A DNA stretch of 64,000 nucleotides from an uncultured candidate division WWE3 bacterium. Lineage in GTDB: Bacteria > Patescibacteriota > WWE3 > UBA101185 > UBA10185. A program made the position numbers and the translations under genes. The stretch spans positions 177,816 through 241,815 of the forward strand of contig CAVXUZ010000005.1 in NCBI GenBank assembly GCA_963765125.1, written 5' to 3'. Of this stretch, positions 1,763-59,475 are shown piece by piece. Under the pieces are notes generated by a model. That model was not told where the DNA came from and did no database searches. It saw only the letters and a program-made list of their open reading frames with translations. Every line of letters begins with the position of its first letter. The stretch's first letter is position 1.

Positions 1763-4700
1763 TTATAAATTAGGTGTAACAGTAAAATAAACAATATCTG
1801 TATATTCTCCCGCTATTGTGTTTGGGGACATCGTTGCTTTAAATAACAACGTTGCAGTTTCGTCTGCAACTCCTACAGTATTTGAAAAAATAGGATTTGT
1901 TGAGATTTCTAATCCACCTACAGTATTTCCACTTACATTATATTTTGAGTCAACCACAGCTGTAGCAGAACTTGCCTGGACACCGTAGCCTTCTACACCT
2001 GGTGTTAAAACCATGTCAGCTGACATAATTGTGCTACCAGAGCCGTTAAATAATCCACCAACATAACCATTGCCATCATCATTTATATAAACTTGGTATC
2101 CTGTATACCCGTTGGTATTAACTGCTACGTTCATAGTGGTAGTTTGAGAGATACTATTAATATTTAAGGTGCCCAATGTTAGAGATGCTTTTGAAACTGA
2201 CATGTTTACATAGGGTACAGTAGTAGTAGACGCATTAGATTCAGGGCTATACTCTGTCTCAGTAAAATCCCCTTGCAGTGCCTTTACTCTCGCTTTGTAT
2301 GTACTTTTTGGCATTAAATCAAGAATATAAGAGCCCGAACTTCCTCCCCACGAATCATAAGTTCTATAATCTTCTATTCCCAAAGTGTCTCCTACAGTAC
2401 CGTCGTTTTGTACATACTGATAAGAGCTGAAGTCGTTTGATGATACTTTGACTGCATATAAAGTGTCCGTAGGATTGCCCGCAGTGCTCAACGTTATGGT
2501 TAACCTACTATAAGAATTATCTGAATTTATTAAAGCCGGCGCATACGGTGTGTTAACTTCAATTCTTGAGTTATATCCAATCTTAGTTCTGAAACTAGCA
2601 GAGTCGTCAATTCCTGCAAACGGGTTTATTTCACCAAGTATGCCAAAGTTTGTACTAGACCCAGAGGCTGAGCCTGCAGAAAGAGCGTCACCTCTTATTC
2701 TAAAACTGGGGCTGTACATTTCATCTGACGTAAACTCTTGCTCATCCTCCCAACTACCGTAGGCGGGTTCGTTGTTAGTGTAACTCCTAATCCAAATTGC
2801 GTCATAGTTTGAATACGTTGTTGAGTAGGTAAAAACACCTGTTCTTCCGGTACTGTATGTGGTTTCACTTGATCTTGTTGTTGTACTTGTGGGTGTACCT
2901 GTATAAACAGCTGACTCGGTGTATAGTTCCGAGATAAGTGAATTACTATTTGCTCTATATAAATTAACCAGATACCAAGTATCTAAAGAAACTAAATAAG
3001 ATCCATTAGTAATAAGAGTGTATGAAGTGTCAACTCTAATTTGTGGAGAAACAGCGCCTCTACCATCTAATGTTGCCTGGTATCCGCTGTTTGCGGACGA
3101 CGCACCGGCTGTATGCAACCCTGGACCAAGTGTATCTACATCGATTGCGCCAGACTCAATACGAAGCCACCCCTCTTGAACATAGTTGTCAACGCTAAAA
3201 TTATTAACGTCCTGCATCTGAATTCTATAATCATTAGACGCATGATTTACGTCACCACAGCCGCTACCTTCTTTACACGAATTGGTACTAGTAGAAAATG
3301 TAATTCCCGAAGCACCCGCAGTATCAAAAAGAATGTTACTATCATCAAAATCCTCAAAATGATCAAACGTAGCAGAGCCATTGGATGTCGTTGATGCTGA
3401 GGAATTACCATAATAAATTAGAATACCAGCACCCCCTGATAAAGGAATAGAATCAATCTCAACATAAAAAACAGCCTTGTCACTATCAATTTTTTGTATA
3501 AGGTAATAGTCGAGCTCAACTCCATCGAGACTTGTAAATCTAATATCTCCAAAATCAGTTTTGCATTTGGAATCTAGGTATACATTCATGCCACTGTCAG
3601 TTCCACTGCCGTAATTTACAACTATCTTTTTTTCGTAGTTTAATAGTGTCCCGTCTACTGATGACTCAATATTTAATGGTTTTCTATATTGCCAAGAGCT
3701 ATTAAGCCAACCAGTAATCTCAATAATTGGCGCAACCTCTTCCTCTAAGCTCCAAAAGCCAAAAGTGGGTTCATCTTCTGTACGATTTCTAATCCATATT
3801 GCATCAAAATTTGAATATGCTGTTGAATATGCAAACACACCGTGTCTACCTGTATTGCGCGTGGTTTCACTTGAACGTACCGTTGTAGTTGTTGGTGTAT
3901 TCGTATATGCTGCTCCTTCAGTAAACAACTCAGACTTAATGTCACTACCATTATCCCTATAAAGGTTAATAAGATACCAGGTGTTCAATGCTATTTGATA
4001 CGCGCCATTCGTTCTCCCAGTATTGCTAGTATCTTCTCTTATTTGTGGTGATTCTGCACTCCTATAGTCTATTATTGCCTGGTAACCGTTCAGTGAAGAA
4101 GCTGCGCCTGCCATGTGCAAACCAGGTCCGAATTGATCGTTACCTGTAGCACCAGATTCAATCCTTAACCATCCCTCTTCAATATACTCGTCGACATCAA
4201 AATCTGTAGTGTTTTGCATTTGTGTTCTATACGCCATAGATGGATTATTTACATCACCGCACCCACCCCCTTCCTTACATGAAGTAGTACTTGCAACAAA
4301 AGTTACACCAGCAGATCCAGCTGTGTCGAAAAGCCAGCTACTGTCATCAAAGTCCTCAAAGTGATCAAAGGTAGCAGATCCGTTTGATGTAGTTGATGCA
4401 GCGACATTGCCATAATATATATATACGTCGGTTCCTCCAGAGGCTGGAATTGAATTAATTTCTACAAAAAAAGTTGCTTTATCACTATCAGTTTTTTGTA
4501 ATAGGTAATAGTCTAGTTCTGTTCCATTTTCTGTGGCAAACCTAATATCTCCAAAATCTATATTACTTTTTGAGTTTAAATACACGTCCATGTCGCTGTC
4601 AGTACCAGCACCATAATTTACAGTTATTTTTTTTTCGTAATTTGTTAACACACCATCCGCAGAAGAATTAATATGTATTGATTTTCTGTACTGCCAAGCG

Positions 4701-6157: not shown

Positions 6158-6400
6158 TGATTTTCTATTTGGCTGGAACATTGTGCTTTAGTCGGAACAT
6201 TATTAAAGTTAAATATCACTAACTATCTTTAAAAATAATCACGAAACTGTTAATCAGTCTCTACAATGGTTCGAACTGGAAGATAAGTTGTTGTTAGAGG
6301 AAAATCAACCTATTTTATATTCATGCCTGGCCGTCTGGTCTCAGATTGGAACTTTTTCTAGTGTATTTTAGCGGCAAGTACTGAAATATATGCTAGATTT

Positions 6401-52475: not shown

Positions 52476-53090
52476 TTATTTTGTTGGCATCCACCCGCAG
52501 GAAATTTTATTCTCTGCTGAATATATAATACACATTGCAGACTTAAATCTATAGTCCTCATCTTTTGGGGCAATATATCCAATCCCACCTCTGCCATCCT
52601 TGCTCACGTAATTAAAATCACCCAGCTCATTCACCCAACCATCATTCTCAAAAAACTTTTCAATCTTCTTCTTGCTCTCATAACTTATACGTATAGTTTT
52701 TGCATTTGAAAGTGTTAGTGTTGCATCTTGCGCTGTCCATAATGTTTGTTCTTGCGTTATTGCAAGATCGCTTAATCCTGCAACTTCTGCAAAAGTGATC
52801 ATCAGACTATCTGTTGTGTCTGGTTTAGCTGTCTCAACAATATTTTCATCTTCTTTTACTGAAATTGTAAAAACAGCAATCGCTAATCCTATTAAAACAA
52901 CAAATAGAAATATTATCATTTTTAGAGAAAGCAACTTAAACAAAATATTTCTTTTGTTGTCTTTTTTTGTTTCGTCGTAAATATTGGTCATAAATACAAC
53001 ATCTTCTTTTTGCTTATGCTTATTTTGATAAATTTTAATAAATTCGATATTTTGTGAAATTAATTTCTTAATATATGTGATTAATTCCAT
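52476..53090 (-). CDS. hypothetical membrane-anchored protein
   Basis: 204 aa with one TM after a basic N-terminus. Confidence 0.4.
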   Translation of the reverse strand: MELITYIKKLISQNIEFIKIYQNKHKQKEDVVFMTNIYDETKKDNKRNILFKLLSLKMIIFLFVVLIGLAIAVFTISVKEDENIVETAKPDTTDSLMITFAEVAGLSDLAITQEQTLWTAQDATLTLSNAKTIRISYESKKKIEKFFENDGWVNELGDFNYVSKDGRGGIGYIAPKDEDYRFKSAMCIIYSAENKISCGWMPTK

Positions 53091-53732
53091 ACATTATTTA
53101 TATCATATTGTGTAAAAGCTTCTTTTGAGAAAGTGGCAAATTAAAAACAGCCGCGTTGTTAATACTTGCGACTGTTTAAGTAATTTGTGGAAAGCAAAAT
53201 ACCTTATTCGTAGGCTCAAACGGTATAGGAATATACTTTAAACCCTTTCCTTTTCTTACTGTTGTAGCAATTTTACAGTATTTTTGTACAATTTATAAAA
53301 GTAGGATTTATACGTACATATGCCATTTTTCAACAAAAAATGATTTGACCCCAGATTATTCTATTTCTCTGAGGTCTATAGTTTATAAGAATTCTTTTTA
53401 ACTGGTTACTGTTCTTATTTGTTTAAATAACATCATACTGAGTTTTTAATGCATACCTCTTCGCTCGCCAGTGACGCCAAAATGGTAGCCCAAAAAAGAG
53501 CTTTGCATCCTTTAACGTGCTATACAAAAATCCGTCAGTACCAACATAACCTTTATATCTACCACAGTCTTGTAAAACAGATACACTCTTTTTGTTAACT
53601 ATTAAATCAATCACATACACGTACCCACGCATTGTTACTGCCTCCTTCTCAGAATTGGTTTAAGATCAGGCGTTAAATATAATTGCTGGAATTATATGCA
53701 GTTTTACCATACGAGTCAAACGCTACAGGATA

Positions 53733-53748
53733 TTGGGGTGGCTGACCG
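53733..53748. repeat. 16-nt direct repeat of the tRNA-His 3' end (att-like)
   Basis: ttggggtggctgaccg occurs identically at 53733-53748 and again at 53900-53915, where it is the tRNA-His 3' end. Confidence 0.6.
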
Positions 53749-53850
53749 AACTCGGTCACGTGTCTTTTGTCTGTAGCTCACTTTGGTGCACAACATACAA
53801 AAGCACTCGACCCCGCCTCCTTCGCTTCGCTCAGTCCGGCATTCGATCCC

Positions 53851-53900
53851 TGTAAACACAAAGAAAGCTGTCATCCACCTTCGGTGAATACCAGCTTTCT
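53851..53900 (-). terminator. rho-independent terminator immediately after tRNA-His
   Basis: agaaagctg / cagctttct 9-bp stem. On the minus strand it is followed by TTTGTGTTT. Confidence 0.45.
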
Positions 53901-53976
53901 TGGGGTGGCTGACCGGGCTCGAACCGGCGACATCCTCTTCCACAGAGAGGCGCTCTACCACTGAACTACAGCCACC
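53901..53976 (-). tRNA. tRNA-His (anticodon GUG) with genome-encoded G-1
   Basis: Reverse complement G|GTGGCTGTAGTTCAGTGGTAGAGCG CCTCT CTGTGGA AGAGG...GGTTCGAGCCCGG TCAGCCAC C CCA. There is an extra 5' G opposite discriminator C73. Confidence 0.8.
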
Positions 53977-54005
53977 GCGCACAATTACAGGGGAATTATA
54001 ACATT

Positions 54006-55427
54006 TTAATTAGTCTTTACGTGTTTCCAGTTTATAAAGTCTAAAAATCTATCGCCGGTGGTAAAGGTGTATTTATCACCAACCCCCTCTATATATTTTG
54101 AGATGTAATGCTTACTGAATGGGTGATACAAAAATATAGCAGGTGTCGTTTCAACTACTACTTTTTGAAATTCGTTGTAGTGTGTAACCCTCTTTGCCTG
54201 ATCAGGCTCATTTCGACCCTCTTCTAACGCCCTGTCTGCACGAACTTGCTCAAATCCGCTTAAATTAAGCCCTGGAGCATCTTTTTGTGTTGAATGCCAA
54301 TTTATATACCTATCCGGATCTCTATCAACTTCTTGCCCGTAAAACAATATTTCAAAATTTCTAGGGTTTATTGCCTCGTCAACGATTTTGTCTGATGCTA
54401 TTTCGATAGTTTTAACCTCTAAACCAAATTTGTCTTCCCAAATATGCGCGATATTCTCTGCCATTTTTTTATGTGCTTTAATATCAGGAACTGTGATTCT
54501 TAATGTCAAATCTTTATAATCAGCGCTTATATCGGCAGAGCCATCAAAATCGATGGACTTATCGGTAAATGAACTTCGACTAATGGGTCCTTGAACTCTG
54601 ATGCCTTTTTCGTAAATTAGTTGATCGATGTCTAGAGCTGCTAAAAGGTTATCTCTAAGTTTAACGTCTTGATACTTTTCATCGCGTAAATTAAAAAATA
54701 GCGCATAGTAAACACCTTGCAGAGGTAAGTTAAACTTTTCAAAATTGTCTATTGAATATTCTTGGTCTGACACAAATCCATCAATCTCACCTAATTTTGC
54801 TGCTGTAAGAATCTCGTTTTCATTTGCGTAACATCTGAAACTTAAACGTCTTATATCAAGTTCTGGTTTTTCGTGAACTAGAACAATCTGTTTAATTACT
54901 GGGCCACTTCTTTCAACGCGTGCCACCTTAAACGGTCCGCTACTGATTGGATTTAATTGATCCATTTTTTCTTCTGACTCATCCGGCATAACGCCGACTG
55001 TTAAAAGATTTAGAAAGGGAGAGTATTTGTTTGGTAATGTATAACGTACTGTTAAATCGTCAACTCGATCTGTTGCCACACCCGCAAGATTACTAACCTT
55101 ATAAGAGGTATAAATTAAATCGTCTGCGTTAATTTGTTTTCCGTTTGACCAATACTGCTTATCTTTTAGTTTTATTGTGTAAACAAGACCATCCTCTGAA
55201 ATACTCCAAGTTTCGGCGAGATCAGGTATTAAAGTACCGTATATGTCATATTCGAACAATCCTCTGTAGATCATTCTTGAAATAGTGTTATCGATTTTAT
55301 TTACGGTTTGGCTGGGTAAAAATGAGTTTGGCTGGCCGACAACGCCCTCTGTGTAATCATTGACCGTTGGCGATATTCCTAACCAAAATGTGTTTATGAC
55401 AAAAATTATATGTGTTAAGAAATTCAC
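54006..55427 (-). CDS. ABC-type solute-binding protein, family 5 (peptide/nickel SBP), membrane-anchored
   Basis: 473 aa. N-terminal TM, then SBP_bac_5-like domain order. No cognate permease or ATPase genes adjacent. Confidence 0.55.
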   Translation of the reverse strand: MNFLTHIIFVINTFWLGISPTVNDYTEGVVGQPNSFLPSQTVNKIDNTISRMIYRGLFEYDIYGTLIPDLAETWSISEDGLVYTIKLKDKQYWSNGKQINADDLIYTSYKVSNLAGVATDRVDDLTVRYTLPNKYSPFLNLLTVGVMPDESEEKMDQLNPISSGPFKVARVERSGPVIKQIVLVHEKPELDIRRLSFRCYANENEILTAAKLGEIDGFVSDQEYSIDNFEKFNLPLQGVYYALFFNLRDEKYQDVKLRDNLLAALDIDQLIYEKGIRVQGPISRSSFTDKSIDFDGSADISADYKDLTLRITVPDIKAHKKMAENIAHIWEDKFGLEVKTIEIASDKIVDEAINPRNFEILFYGQEVDRDPDRYINWHSTQKDAPGLNLSGFEQVRADRALEEGRNEPDQAKRVTHYNEFQKVVVETTPAIFLYHPFSKHYISKYIEGVGDKYTFTTGDRFLDFINWKHVKTN

Positions 55428-55431
55428 GTTG

Positions 55432-56598
55432 TTATTTTAACAAAATTTGCTGATAAATATCTCTATGTTGCTCTGCAATCTTTTTCCAGCTTCTTGCTAC
55501 AGCCTTTTTAGCAACGTTTGTCTCTATCTCTTTTACCAACTGTGGGTTTTCAGCAATCTCTAGAAATGCTTTATCCCAGTCGCTATTTGATGTTAAATAG
55601 CCATCAACCTTGTGAGTAATCTCTTCATTATAATTTCCTATTTTCGAAGCAATTACACATTTTTTAAATCCGAAAGCCTGTGCTAAAGGTCCGCTTGCTG
55701 AAATACTTATTACTGCCGGTATAACGCAACAATACGCACGACTAAACTGTTTTTCGATTTGTTCTTTTTCTAAAAAGCCTAAAATGTTTACGTTGTTAGT
55801 TAATTTAAGTTTTTTAATCAGATTTTTTATTTCTTCAAACGCAAATTCCTGGCCTTTAATAACTCCTCCGCCCATAATTAGTTTTGTATTTTTATACTTT
55901 GGATTTTGAATAAACTTTGCAAACCCTCTCAAAATATTTTCTATTCCTTTGCGTCTTGCAAAATAACCAAAATAAAAAAAGTCCTTTGACCTTTCTTTTG
56001 TAGACGAATTTATGATTTTTACACCGTGACTTAAAACCTCAACTTTTTCTTTTTTTACACCATAATCATTTGTTAACCACTTTTTTAATAAATTGGTATG
56101 AACAATAACTTTTTCTACAAGCAGACCTGTTACAAGCGCAAAATAATTAAAGAAACTAATGAGAAGTTCTGGTTTGATGATTGATTTGCCTCCTCTAAAC
56201 ATTCCAACAAAATTCTGGTCAATTATCTTTTTGGGTACAACAGCGTGCTGGGTAATAACAATTTTAAATCCGTAGATTCTTAAAATCATAAAAAACAGAG
56301 GTAAAAAAGAGTTTGTAAGTGCTCCACCAAACATATTAGTTTCATATTGAAAATGCACGATTTTTGGACGATCGATGAAGAGTTCGCTTAAAATAGATAC
56401 AAAAAATAATACCCCCTTTTGCCAAACGGGCTTAACTTTGCCAAAACCACTGGTTTGTCTACTCCTCGTTGAAGTTGGTGCATACACAACTAGCTCTGGT
56501 TTATCTGATTTTGACAGCTTTTCGTACTCTTGAACCAAAAAACTCGAATAGTTAGAATACGGCTCCAAACTGGTAATCATCACAACTATATTTTTCAT
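55432..56598 (-). CDS. family-4 (GT-B) glycosyltransferase
   Basis: C-terminal GT4 fold features (EGFGLP-like region reduced). 388 aa. Confidence 0.6.
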   Translation of the reverse strand: MKNIVVMITSLEPYSNYSSFLVQEYEKLSKSDKPELVVYAPTSTRSRQTSGFGKVKPVWQKGVLFFVSILSELFIDRPKIVHFQYETNMFGGALTNSFLPLFFMILRIYGFKIVITQHAVVPKKIIDQNFVGMFRGGKSIIKPELLISFFNYFALVTGLLVEKVIVHTNLLKKWLTNDYGVKKEKVEVLSHGVKIINSSTKERSKDFFYFGYFARRKGIENILRGFAKFIQNPKYKNTKLIMGGGVIKGQEFAFEEIKNLIKKLKLTNNVNILGFLEKEQIEKQFSRAYCCVIPAVISISASGPLAQAFGFKKCVIASKIGNYNEEITHKVDGYLTSNSDWDKAFLEIAENPQLVKEIETNVAKKAVARSWKKIAEQHRDIYQQILLK

Positions 56599-56716
56599 TG
56601 AGTAGAATATATCATAACAACAGCCTGCTTATCTAAGTTGTAATTACAACAACTAGCTGTTAAAATCTTGAGGGAATTTTTGTATAATACAAAATACAAC
56701 TTTCTCTTTTAAGAAT

Positions 56717-56791
56717 GGCCCCATCGTCTAACGGTTAGGACATCAGGTTTTCATCCTGGAAATCGGAGTTCGATTCTCCGTGGGGTCACCA
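56717..56791 (+). tRNA. tRNA-Glu (anticodon UUC)
   Basis: GGCCCCATCGTCTAACGGTTAGGACA TCAGG TTTTCAT CCTGG...GGAGTTCGATTCTCC GTGGGGTC A CCA. Confidence 0.85.
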
Positions 56792-56792
56792 A

Positions 56793-56830
56793 AAGCGCAG
56801 ATATCACCTAGCGTGATAGTTGCGCTTTTG
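56793..56830 (+). terminator. rho-independent terminator immediately after tRNA-Glu
   Basis: aagcgca(gatatcac ctagc gtgatagt)tgcgctt long hairpin followed by TTTG. Confidence 0.5.
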
Positions 56831-56914
56831 TGATTTCGGAGGGGACGTACTAGCGTAAGCGTGTTCGACAATTTGAACAAAGTGAGAATTGGTAGCGAAC
56901 ATAGTGAGCGTGTT

Positions 56915-56932
56915 TCTCCGTGGGGTCACCAT
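56915..56932. repeat. 18-nt direct repeat of the tRNA-Glu 3' end (att-like)
   Basis: ttctccgtggggtcacca occurs identically at 56774-56791 (inside tRNA-Glu) and at 56915-56932. Confidence 0.6.
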
Positions 56933-56998
56933 AATCTTGAATTATGCGTAAAAAAACACCACATTTGGATATACCGTGAATGTGGTGTTTGTTTTTTT

Positions 56999-57316
56999 TT
57001 AGTGCCTATCTAAATTGTGTAACCCGTTGTAGTATCTCATGGCCTTTTCGTACCCCTGGTTATCGAATATTGCTTTTACAAAACCTGGAATAAGTGCGTC
57101 AACTTTCCTGATTTCAAGTCCAGTACCTGGCGTTTTGATGTAATCCCAAATTGTTATGGACATTAGAAGAACAAACTCTTCGGGGGTCATCTCTTGTCCA
57201 GACCAACAAAGTAAGACAGGATATACATTTTTCTCTATCGCCTCTTCTGAACAGACGTCTCTTAGTTTGCTCAAAAGTTCAACCTGCCTCGGTAAAACAA
57301 CTGTTTCGTTGTCCAT
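56999..57316 (-). CDS. hypothetical protein
   Basis: 105 aa. No motif. Confidence 0.35.
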   Translation of the reverse strand: MDNETVVLPRQVELLSKLRDVCSEEAIEKNVYPVLLCWSGQEMTPEEFVLLMSITIWDYIKTPGTGLEIRKVDALIPGFVKAIFDNQGYEKAMRYYNGLHNLDRH

Positions 57317-57387: not shown

Positions 57388-59475
57388 TTACCTTAATTTG
57401 TATAAGTAAAACATCATCTCTCTCGTGTAGTATTTGTGCGGAGGAAGTAAACAACCAATTTCACCATTAATGTCCATACCCTTAACACTTGCTAGTTTTA
57501 AAAACGAGTAGGTGTGAAAAGTACATTCATCACTTACATTGTAGTAACTATATTTTTGTTTATAAACATCTACTTCACTCAATGACTGGATTTTTTCATT
57601 TGATAGTACATACGTATTCTTGTAGTTTTTACTCAACAGTTTAATATCTTCACCAAACAAATTATCAACATTTTCAACTGAAAATACGTTCATGTCGTAA
57701 TAGTACTTAAATGGTGCGACACTAAACGTTGCAAAGTTATTAAAATATTTTTGCGGCTTTTCATTTGTTTGTTCTCTAAATAAGATCAATAAGTCATTTG
57801 TCTTAACAACGTTTCTTACGTCATCATAAAATTTAATTGATTGCCCTTCAGTTCCTAATGTTTGTACAAATGAAAATATTAAGAAATAGATTGTGATTAA
57901 CGATAGAGCGCTGTACGTAATGTAGCGCAGTTTAGAACCTAGCGATAAATATGAAAATATTGCCAGAATGATTATTGTGAAATTTACAATCTCTAAAAAT
58001 ATGTACCTCGCAGTGTAATATTGGTATCTCACAATATCACCAAATGTAACTTGTATTAATAAAAAGTACAGAGTCGTAATCAGCAAAGTAACAATTTTTG
58101 CATCTTTCTCTTTTTTAAATCCGTACAGTACAGTGCCAGTAAACAAAGCAATTAATCCAATTAGTGAAATGTGCTGTGACAATACAAAAAGGTTTGTGTG
58201 TTTCAATGCTTCAACTCTGTTAACACCCGTATACCAGTATCTTTCGGTGTTCGTTGCTACCGATATGTCTTTAAGGTTTATTGATTGATATTGTTTAATA
58301 CTGAAGTAAGCGATTATTAAAATTAGGATTACAAAGATTACCCAAATATATTTTTCAAACAACTCTTTTGTCTTCTTTAAAATCTTTTGCCCGTTAAACC
58401 TGTTTATCAATAAGATTACTGCCGCCGTAACAGCAACAATCGCCAACAGTTTAATATCAGACGCGCTACCTAATAGTTTTTGCATAGTCGTTGGATAAAT
58501 TCTGTTAAACGTTATTGGTAAGAATTTAAAATAAAAAACAAATGAAACAAAAAATGTAACTGTTAAAGAACCTAAATATATTAGTATTGCTTTCTTTTTC
58601 ACTTTATTTTTTATATACAAAACTGACAGTACCCCAATAAGCGCAAAAATAGGAAGATACATAAATGAGCTCATTCTTGTGTAGTAAAATCCATTAAATA
58701 AAAGTATTGAAAGAAAAAGTTCAAATATATTTTGTTTGGTGATTTTTTCTGCATTTAGAACCCGTATTAATAGGTAAAAACCCATCGCAATATAGGTAAG
58801 TGCGGTAATTTCACCAACAGGAAACTTAGAATAAAACACATGCATTGGGTTTATTGCTGCCAATCCCATCGCGATTAACCCTGCTGTTTTCTTCTTGCCT
58901 ACTAATTCGTAAGTAATTAAATATATCGCAACTAGTGAAATGGTTGAGAAAAATGTTAATGAGTAAGTAGAATTGTTTTGCCCGAAAATAACCTCAAAGA
59001 TTGCAATCCACGATGGATGCATAGGATAAAAAACCATTTCTAAAATAGATGCATCTCTATCGTAATACTCAAAACTCGGCATTAGATTACTCATATTCTT
59101 GTCGTATATTTCTTTTTGAGCTTCTGAAAGTGTTTCTCTGAAATAATCTTTATATTTAAGACTTCCCTGTTTTACATACTGGTGCGCAATGTTTACATAG
59201 GTACCTTGGTCTTGGCCACCCATTATGTATTGTGACGGCGGTAATCTTAAAATTAGGGCAAGTACCAAAATTAAAATAAAAAATAAAGTTTCAAGCTTTG
59301 GAATTTTTATACTTCGCAATTTTTGAATATAACCAGTTTTGTAAATATAGATAATAGTTGCGATAATCCCCATACTTAATGAGTAAAGCGCGTTAAAGTG
59401 GCTTACAGTTAGAGAACCTACTGAAAATAGGCCTGTAACTGCAATAAAAACTAACAATGGTATGATCATCACCAT
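57388..59475 (-). CDS. large polytopic membrane protein, GT-C-like glycosyltransferase candidate
   Basis: 695 aa with ~13 TMs and a ~200-aa C-terminal soluble domain. Divergent from the wzm/wzt export genes. No sharp motif. Confidence 0.4.
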   Translation of the reverse strand: MVMIIPLLVFIAVTGLFSVGSLTVSHFNALYSLSMGIIATIIYIYKTGYIQKLRSIKIPKLETLFFILILVLALILRLPPSQYIMGGQDQGTYVNIAHQYVKQGSLKYKDYFRETLSEAQKEIYDKNMSNLMPSFEYYDRDASILEMVFYPMHPSWIAIFEVIFGQNNSTYSLTFFSTISLVAIYLITYELVGKKKTAGLIAMGLAAINPMHVFYSKFPVGEITALTYIAMGFYLLIRVLNAEKITKQNIFELFLSILLFNGFYYTRMSSFMYLPIFALIGVLSVLYIKNKVKKKAILIYLGSLTVTFFVSFVFYFKFLPITFNRIYPTTMQKLLGSASDIKLLAIVAVTAAVILLINRFNGQKILKKTKELFEKYIWVIFVILILIIAYFSIKQYQSINLKDISVATNTERYWYTGVNRVEALKHTNLFVLSQHISLIGLIALFTGTVLYGFKKEKDAKIVTLLITTLYFLLIQVTFGDIVRYQYYTARYIFLEIVNFTIIILAIFSYLSLGSKLRYITYSALSLITIYFLIFSFVQTLGTEGQSIKFYDDVRNVVKTNDLLILFREQTNEKPQKYFNNFATFSVAPFKYYYDMNVFSVENVDNLFGEDIKLLSKNYKNTYVLSNEKIQSLSEVDVYKQKYSYYNVSDECTFHTYSFLKLASVKGMDINGEIGCLLPPHKYYTREMMFYLYKLR

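Follow-up and report, generated by a model that had tools for sequence, protein, structure and literature searches.

Short non-coding units behind tRNA-Glu and tRNA-His in a WWE3 bacterium and its relatives: candidate tRNA-derived RNA modules with a conserved fold

Introduction

Partial copies of tRNA genes that lie beside the intact gene are usually the attR sites of integrated elements of 9-23 kb (PMC9897764). The subject of the present analysis is a pair of much shorter arrangements, referred to here as the Glu and His units, which lie behind tRNA-Glu (TTC) and tRNA-His (GTG) in a stretch of 64,000 nucleotides (hereafter the window) from an uncultured candidate division WWE3 bacterium (assembly GCA_963765125.1, contig CAVXUZ010000005.1, positions 177,816 to 241,815). 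Behind each of these tRNAs stands a hairpin, then a body of approximately 100-125 nt and then a copy of the final 18-22 nt of the same tRNA, from the T-loop to the CCA end. Partial tRNA copies are routinely dismissed as integration scars. Those described here make up the 3' strand of a fold that is conserved, covaries and is found again in many genomes, mainly those of the Candidate Phyla Radiation (CPR), which are tiny and hold little spare DNA. The units constitute an uncatalogued, widely scattered class and are not random integration scars, and no description of such units was found in the literature. From their sequences, they appear to be a variant of two established themes, the tRNA-like RNAs and the attachment (att) repeats at tRNA ends.

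The att repeats used by tyrosine integrases, as found at P4-type islands, prophages and integrative and conjugative elements (ICEs), share with the units a direct repeat running from the T-loop to the end of the tRNA, with the full tRNA on the inside, a fragment on the outside and the possibility of tandem arrays. Unlike these, window-type units have 113-155 nt between the repeats, with neither an integrase nor cargo, and their interior folds in a conserved, covarying manner, with the outer repeat serving as a helix strand. Of the features by which an att scar is recognised, the direct repeat of the tRNA 3' end is present, and no element genes were found among the neighbouring genes. The cis-mobilisable elements (CIMEs) of streptococci, which are att-flanked remnants of ICEs, are also non-autonomous, devoid of recombination genes and capable of accretion in tandem, but they span kilobases, can be traced to a recognisable ICE and bear no conserved RNA-like fold.

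Some tRNA-like RNAs borrow the machinery of tRNA-end processing, including the plant mitochondrial t-elements, the mascRNA of MALAT1, the tRNA-like domain of tmRNA and the 3' structures of some viruses. The units resemble these RNAs in possessing an acceptor/T-arm-like helix that ends in (N)CCA, in their location beside or within the transcript of other RNAs and in a predicted dependence on RNase P and the CCA-enzyme. They differ in that the 3' strand is taken verbatim from the adjacent tRNA, there are no D and anticodon arms, a three-hairpin insert of 60-70 nt is carried at the T-loop, and pairing by the 5' strand extends to A73/C74 so as to leave CA alone free.

Recombination sites formed by a folded single strand, such as the attC sites of integrons and the attP hairpin of CTX phage, likewise combine an imperfect inverted copy of the target with a strand-specific fold, conserved structure and arrays at one site. 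In contrast to these, the units have the end of a tRNA as their target instead of attI or dif, lie outside any integron-integrase or Xer context, and have a conserved interior bearing RNA-type motifs, namely invariant G.U and tandem G.A pairs. TIGR arrays consist of 8-12-nt repeats that alternate with 9-nt spacers beside a Nop-domain Tas gene (PMC12045711). A TIGR-like reading of the units was rejected, as they are spaced 77-180 nt apart and have no Nop-domain gene in their vicinity, and a Box C/D reading was also rejected.

Anatomy of the two units

The two units came to attention through an original prediction, made from the letters of the window, that two segments bounded by tRNA repeats share sequence blocks and might represent a common miniature element or RNA family. 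A repeat finder pairs positions 53733-53754 with 53900-53921 at tRNA-His (20/22 identical, spacing 167) and positions 56774-56794 with 56914-56934 at tRNA-Glu (18 nt exact, spacing 140). In both cases, identity begins within the T-loop and ends at the CCA or one base later, and none of the other eight tRNAs of the window has a 3'-end repeat of this sort. The inserts of 140-167 bp are non-coding. As had been predicted, each segment opens with a terminator-like hairpin: an inverted-repeat search places the arms at 53856-53879/53883-53906 in the His segment and at 56790-56807/56813-56830 in the Glu segment, each pair being followed by a T-run. The Glu hairpin looks like an intrinsic terminator, and so does the His hairpin by its sequence and predicted fold. 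The Glu module stands out from its surroundings by composition, at 49% GC compared to about 31-39% per 1-kb window and approximately 35% for the window as a whole. Coordinates of all features are collected in Table 1.

No Rfam family accounts for either unit, and the original prediction had not been able to assign the segments to an ncRNA or mobile-element family. Neither is matched by a family of Rfam 15 or called as a tRNA, at the gathering score or even at E ≤ 10, and only the two tRNAs themselves score in the region 53600-57050; applied to 18 related loci, Rfam 15 likewise returned tRNAs only.

The conserved fold of the Glu type

The secondary structure of the Glu type was set by eye on eight close sequences. 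A covariance model built on this structure (R1) served for realignment, from which the model was rebuilt (R2). R1 recovered 14 units at E<0.02, comprising that of the window (58.5 bits) and 13 others, while R2 recovered 17 units at E<0.01, distributed over 15 loci plus the window. In all, the Glu unit has about 20 relatives, of which those at 15 loci match R2 at this threshold.

In the consensus, a closing helix of 8 + 5 pairs joins the start of the body (GTGATyyyCGC..GGGRA) to the distal tRNA copy, which contributes T-loop positions 59-60, the 3' strands of the T-stem and acceptor stem, A73 and C74. The helix encloses a four-way junction, to which the short hairpin Pa belongs, and a conserved unpaired GTTCGAC that includes the T-loop pentamer TTCGA. 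A second hairpin, Pb, is topped by GUA..GRA of the tandem G.A type around a pentaloop, and the small hairpin Pc has the form TTTGN/NCAAA. In Pb/Pc, the copy in the window departs from this consensus, and it has a downstream CGAAC with which its GTTCG can pair.

Conserved secondary structure, for which the original prediction had suggested a test, is evident in the Glu family as strong covariation. In the R1 alignment, 90.2% of cells are paired versus 76.0% in shuffles, and 15 of the 28 pairs have changed on both sides. Covariation scores 0.433, which 0/500 shuffled alignments reach (0.185 in shuffles), and it falls to 0.04-0.14 when the partners are slid by 1-3 columns. Variation in the closing helix is confined to the 5' strand and takes the form of C/U changes opposite G, since the tRNA dictates the 3' strand. 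Cells with G.U outnumber those with A.C by 51 to 7, and the fold therefore belongs to the tRNA-sense strand.

Several types of hairpin stand before the body among the units. The type-1 hairpin (TGAACAGGTTCTTCACC..GGTGGAGGTTCTGTTCA), found in eight CPR genomes, has no T-run; its 16 pairs are 100% paired, with 6/16 changed on both sides, and its G.U / U.U / U.G core is invariant, which is hard to explain if only duplex DNA is involved. The type-2 hairpin of the window Glu unit was also found in L011, L026, L058, L021 and L023 (related loci are numbered with the prefix L). The His hairpin of the window appears as a type-1 apex set on a terminator-like base, its apex TTCACC..GGTGGA being that of the type-1 hairpins that precede Glu-type units elsewhere; as a general terminator type, this apex has no further occurrence within the window.

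Relationship between the His and Glu units

All of the sequence blocks quoted in the original prediction are present where it had placed them, including an exact 9-mer common to both segments (CAAAGTGAG). The pairwise similarity itself does not exceed chance: the best local score of 18, obtained at CAAAGTGAG, is attained by 216 of 1000 dinucleotide shuffles, which score 16.0 ± 2.4. Nor is the window His unit matched by the Glu-derived models, whether R1 (E ≤ 10) or R2 (E ≤ 5). Of the proposed common miniature element or RNA family, what stands is that each segment belongs to a recurrent, conserved class; one single family embracing both is not demonstrable.

The blocks nevertheless reflect shared parts. 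The quoted GAGCGAAGCG, AGCGTAAGCG and CAAAGTGAG are instances of a motif, AGYGAR, which is present three times in each window unit and 43 times on the sense strand of 36 units from many genomes, versus 5.9 ± 2.5 in shuffled sequences and 5 in antisense orientation; for GCGAAGC, the same 36 units give 13 occurrences against 0.3 expected. The TTTGTG(A)TTT.. blocks combine the T-run of the hairpin with the beginning of the strand whose partner is the repeated tRNA end. The order of parts is common to the two window units: a hairpin comes first, then a body in which AGYGAR hairpins abound, and lastly the copy from T-loop to CCA, which pairs with the beginning of the body.

The window His unit has a homologue of its own in L045/L048, where mean column identity (MAFFT) is 81%, and other contigs contain looser analogues. 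Comparison with L045 backs two internal hairpins with 5 compensatory pairs. A small open reading frame (ORF) behind AAGGAGG in the His unit was considered and rejected, as its start position is kept, its peptide is not, and the stems covary.

Recurrence in other genomes

Public sequence collections were scanned for loci in which the final 12 nt of either tRNA occur twice, separated as in the window. Among species-representative genomes, the double tRNA-Glu end was found at 24 loci, of which 20 carry paired tRNA-Glu 3' ends and the remainder are protein-coding repeats. About 20 have a tRNA-Glu (CTC or TTC) whose own 3' end appears again 113-140 nt on; in 19/20, the tRNA-Glu at the first end is the single tRNA that ARAGORN calls, the exception being L019, where the locus starts inside the tRNA. 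The carriers are almost all CPR bacteria, namely WWE3, Saccharibacteria, Nomurabacteria, Parcubacteria and Doudnabacteria, along with two clear cases in metagenome-assembled genomes (MAGs) of Clostridia, and the same arrangement is also present in GC-rich metagenome contigs. The intervening sequences are homologous to that of the window, as typified by GGGGACGTACGAGCTTTAGCGTTGTTCGACTATTGCGTAACAAAGTGGAGCAATTGC in L014 versus GGGGACGTACTAGCGTAAGCGTGTTCGACAATTTGAACAAAGTGAGAATTGG in the window.

For tRNA-His, the double-end pattern matched 28 loci in metagenomes, and a single tRNA-His with a distal copy is found in L031, L037, L039, L041, L042, L045/L048 and L055. A terminator hairpin follows most distal CCA ends.

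Further arrangements were noticed at other loci. In L044 (4716-4988 of FWPV01000010.1) and L047 (1636-1801), the gene for histidyl-tRNA synthetase (HisRS) is followed directly by tRNA-His and then by 3-4 tandem units of 87 nt (or 77 nt), each comprising a terminator-like hairpin and a full tRNA 3' half with a 19-nt GC hairpin in the variable region; these tRNA-end arrays differ in kind from the window units. L051 and L053 (Ga0208196 contigs) hold tandem repeats of 165-166 nt that each end in GGGTCAGCCACCCCA, with no tRNA called adjacent, and a double Glu-end match in a Clostridia MAG (L015, 868-1004, minus strand) lies on the strand opposite to a tRNA-Met/Met/Glu cluster.

Traces of tRNA ancestry and the behaviour of the distal copy

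Overall, the module resembles the acceptor/T-arm minihelix of its parent tRNA, with the D and anticodon arms absent and a large insert at the T-loop. The resemblance extends to the strand that pairs with the distal copy. In L042 this strand (GGTGACTGGTGGG) consists of G-1 and the acceptor 5' strand of tRNA-His fused to the T-stem 5' strand, and the pair G-1:C73 is kept in some His units (L042); in some His versions the 5' strand is still recognisable as GGTGaCTG-GTGGG with G-1. One unit of the Clostridia locus L012 retains the GGCC.. and AACCCGG(AG)GGTTCG of tRNA-Glu, and a base-by-base reading of the Glu 5' strand in CPR genomes against GGCCCCA reveals transitions only, with pairing kept through G.U or A-U. 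The same L012 (6004-6126 of CALVXB010000014.1) also contains a near-complete pseudo-tRNA-Glu with intact-looking acceptor, D and anticodon arms and the anticodon loop CCTTTTA. In its T-loop is the two-hairpin insert that is also found in the minihelix-type unit next to it, and it looks like an intermediate on the way from tRNA to module.

The distal copy is faithful to the tRNA next to it. At the Glu loci, identity continues past the 12 nt set by the search pattern, by 7 nt in the median, and ends at the CCA, and the copies follow the local T-stem variant (TTCTCCG, CTCTCCG, CTCCCGG or TTCCCCG), with a match in 17/20 loci. Departures from the tRNA, where they occur, improve pairing: in the predicted fold of the window His unit, a change of CC to TT turns A.C mismatches into A-U pairs with GATCGAAT, and in the His unit of L058 a change of G to A turns U.G into U-A. 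In L005/L006, a C in the tRNA T-loop is repeated in the distal copy and matched by a G in the 5' strand. The distal copy evolves as part of the module.

Distribution and turnover

The order tRNA-Glu(TTC), solute-binding protein (SBP) gene, tRNA-His is conserved in WWE3, in Saccharibacteria and in the closest relatives of the window, and at the tRNA-Glu(CTC) locus eight unit-bearing genomes have NYN and VanW genes upstream, a synteny that extends across class-level lineages. The units themselves are patchy. L020, L024, L056, L057, L059 and L061 have tRNA-His without a unit, and L056-L062 have tRNA-Glu without an intact one. In L058, tRNA-Glu is followed by the type-2 hairpin and an internally deleted remnant (6205-6340, plus strand; ..CCTGTGGGGTTCATGG), and tRNA-His by a short unit (3500-3730, minus strand) in which the distal copy has one compensatory change.

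Units also occur in tandem (L006, L014, L021, L027 and L034). The complete genome of WWE3 RAAC2 (L021, 2422-2790 of CP006914.1) has two tandem Glu units, of which the outer end copy is degenerate (GTAGGGTCGTCA). Hairpin types, including Pb, have been swapped among the units of L021, L023 and L026, and the Pb swaps in L021 versus L023/L026 indicate recombination between units. One genome has the same subtype at both of its tRNA-Glu genes (L013 and L020), while another has unlike subtypes at its two (L023 and L024), one of which resembles L016 from another phylum.

Interpretation

The reading favoured here, to which we assign about an even chance, is that the two segments are each a copy of an RNA module, tRNA-derived and tRNA-like, situated directly behind its parent tRNA. 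It draws on the sense-strand fold, the invariant wobble and U.U pairs, the G.A loops, the CCA ends, the terminators past the distal CCA and the housekeeping context. The module opens with a hairpin, terminator-like in the window and conserved without a U-run in many relatives, and would yield an RNA of approximately 100-130 nt with paired ends. The 3' strand of this RNA would be the parent tRNA verbatim, from about T-loop position 58 to the discriminator and CCA, and its G.U-rich 5' strand would substitute for the 5' strands of the acceptor and T-stem. The insert would be the working part, probably as a protein-binding platform; that of the Glu type presents the retained GTTCGA and purine-rich AGYGAR loops with tandem G.A pairs. 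A precursor could plausibly be produced by read-through transcription from the tRNA promoter, and the tRNA-end machinery (RNase P, 3' trimming and CCA maintenance) may set and stabilise the ends by recognising the minihelix. The direct repeat of 18-23 nt would then be a by-product of paralogy, its identity held by concerted evolution. Such a repeat would permit clean deletion, tandem duplication and shuffling by recombination, and a patchy distribution would follow from these.

A number of observations weigh against an RNA module. No promoter belonging to the body of a unit was found, and transcription of the body needs read-through because the window units sit behind good terminator-like hairpins. 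The covariation counts come from an alignment fitted to the model, and the shuffle test overstates their significance because the sequences are related. The energy of the closing helix reaches p ≤ 0.05 against shuffled bodies in just 6/36 units; support for this helix therefore lies in its positional consistency, the one-sided C/U changes and three compensatory cases, and its register in the window His unit is ambiguous. The near-universal exact identity with the local tRNA would be explained more simply by target copying or recombination. In an unbiased syntenic sample of six distinct loci, picked by SBP homology (65-69% identity), an intact Glu unit is present in 0/6 and a His unit in 1/5 with tRNA-His (L058), and decayed copies are represented by the outer unit of L021, by L058 and by a remnant in L013. 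Patchiness and decay of this kind are more in keeping with an element that is dispensable or selfish than with an RNA of importance.

A second reading, the main rival and in our estimation the less probable of the two, takes the units as a protein-less miniature integrative element of about 140-170 bp, in which the copy of the tRNA end is the attachment site and the element's own terminator keeps the tRNA functional. Entry would be by site-specific (Campbell-type) recombination or by copying of the target, catalysed in trans, with the folded strand, either RNA or single-stranded DNA as in the attC and CTX attP hairpins, serving as recombination substrate or as a guide pairing with the tRNA end. 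The start of the repeat in the T-loop and its exact end at the CCA are those of classical tRNA att sites, and each unit has its own hairpin right after the tRNA. The match to the local tRNA in most Glu loci, the patchiness, with empty sites in syntenic relatives at both tRNA-His and tRNA-Glu, and the arrays, in which the outer repeat of L021 is the more degenerate, are explained more directly by such an element, and the subtypes shared between the two tRNA-Glu genes of one genome and mixed at those of another, with one resembling a unit from another phylum, are also in its favour. Against it, no integrase, transposase, reverse transcriptase or phage gene adjoins any unit examined, and in a search confined to neighbouring genes none of the 10 (Pfam) and 4 (PHROGs) window ORFs is an integrase or phage-like protein. 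Comparison of both units with phage genomes by blastn gave nothing relevant, and viral contigs contain no match for the double Glu end, the double His end or the junction of body and 3' copy. A double-stranded circle of about 140 bp is implausible as a free form, and none was seen. The invariant G.U/U.U pairs and tandem G.A loops point to an RNA rather than to a recombinase site. Terminal inverted repeats (TIRs) are absent: the unit ends, TGAACAGG.. versus ..GAGTCAAA, form no inverted repeat and the 18-23-nt repeat is the tRNA end rather than a target duplication of 2-14 bp, on which grounds a miniature transposable element with inverted repeats (MITE) or other derivative of an insertion sequence (IS) was rejected, as was a miniature element of the IS200/IS605 or TIR type, whose ends do not match. 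The class-level synteny upstream of tRNA-Glu(CTC) allows vertical descent with repeated clean loss as an alternative to mobility.

The RNA module and the miniature element are not exclusive and may both hold, and the miniature element of the original prediction, taken as a mobile one, is only one of two live readings. A bolder reading, unlikely but worth stating, would be a self-propagating, protein-less tRNA mimic, a folded RNA or single strand whose 5' strand guides it to the 3' end of one tRNA, where it is installed with a fresh copy of that end, and which spreads in this way among tRNA-Glu or tRNA-His genes and between phyla. Should the units be RNAs, they would form an uncatalogued class of tRNA-derived RNA with a probable protein partner; should they be mobile, no smaller element that targets tRNAs has been described, and their insertion would call for a new mechanism. 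Under either reading, they provide annotation pipelines with a concrete signature and experimenters with a short, testable RNA.

Two further explanations are excluded because of the recurrence of the units and their conserved fold. Decayed scars, left as attL, remnant and attR by larger prophages or islands that were almost wholly deleted from their tRNA sites, agree with the repeat geometry and with the usual identity of partial tRNA copies as attR (PMC9897764), but such remnants would not be homologous in some 20 genomes, alike in length (113-140 nt) and folded with compensatory changes, the segments are far richer in GC than their background, unlike old neutral DNA, and no element genes lie nearby; we regard this origin as very improbable. 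Chance, by which AT-rich intergenic DNA would bear accidental short matches to tRNA ends and between segments, accords with the pairwise alignment being no better than shuffles and is given next to no weight, since an 18-nt exact and a 20/22 repeat lie right behind their own tRNAs and behind none of the eight others, and both arrangement and homologous body recur in many genomes.

Genomic setting in the window

Table 1. Positions of the tRNA genes, the Glu and His units and adjacent features in the window
Feature	Position	Strand	Description
tRNA-His (GTG)	53901-53975	-	CCA encoded; ARAGORN and Rfam RF00005, 62.5 bits; parent of the His unit
His unit hairpin	53862-53900	-	17-bp stem with one mismatch, apex TTCACC-GAA-GGTGGA, then TTTGTGTTT; directly after the CCA; inverted repeat, minimum free energy fold
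His unit body	53756-53861	-	block CAGGGATCGAATGCC at 53838-53852; GGGGT at 53810-53814
His body hairpin h1	53815-53840	-	contains AGCGA-AGCGA
His body long hairpin h2	53760-53806	-	contains AAGTGAG
His distal tRNA-end copy	53733-53755	-	T-loop C56 to CCA+1; 20/22 identical
Promoter-like site	53691-53719	-	TTGACT-17-TATAAT, 11/12; directly past the His distal repeat, before a 69-aa ORF
tRNA-Glu (TTC)	56717-56791	+	CCA encoded; ARAGORN and Rfam RF00005, 60.4 bits; parent of the Glu unit
Glu unit hairpin (type 2)	56790-56830	+	apex ATCACC..GTGATA, then TTTTG; inverted repeat; terminator-like match at 56810-56826
Glu-type module	56831-56931	+	R1 58.5 bits, E~1e-12; R2 53 bits, E~1e-10
Glu module 5' strand	56831-56845	+	TGATTTCG..GGGGA; pairs with distal copy 56914-56928
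Glu module interior		+	small hairpin 56851-56862; GTTCGAC 56863-56869; 3' hairpin region 56898-56913
Glu module hairpin CAATT..AATTG	56869-56891	+	loop TGAACAAAGTGAG
Glu distal tRNA-end copy	56914-56934	+	TTCTCCGTGGGGTCACCA exact, T-loop position 59 to CCA
Second hairpin and T-run	56950-56994	+	18 nt past the distal CCA; inverted repeat

The neighbours of the units are housekeeping genes, encoding the SBP, a GT4 glycosyltransferase, tyrosyl-tRNA synthetase (TyrRS), NYN and VanW proteins and HisS. In the window, both tRNAs face outward from a two-gene housekeeping block that encodes an SBP_bac_5 protein and the GT4 glycosyltransferase, with the gene for TyrRS nearby, and the best relatives of the TyrRS and the solute-binding protein are from CPR/Patescibacteria. 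As a handle for finding related loci, the GT4 glycosyltransferase gave no relatives, and the loci of TyrRS relatives are not syntenic with the window. Exact matches to the proteins of the window's own genes are not on record.

Two flanking ORFs on the minus strand, of 695 aa (57388-59475) and 204 aa (52476-53090), have no Pfam or PHROGs match, and the same applies to the 69-aa ORF (53423-53632) behind the promoter-like site. This promoter-like site marks the outer limit of the His unit, and on the other side of the block the second hairpin ends the Glu module and/or the convergent gene at 56999-57316.

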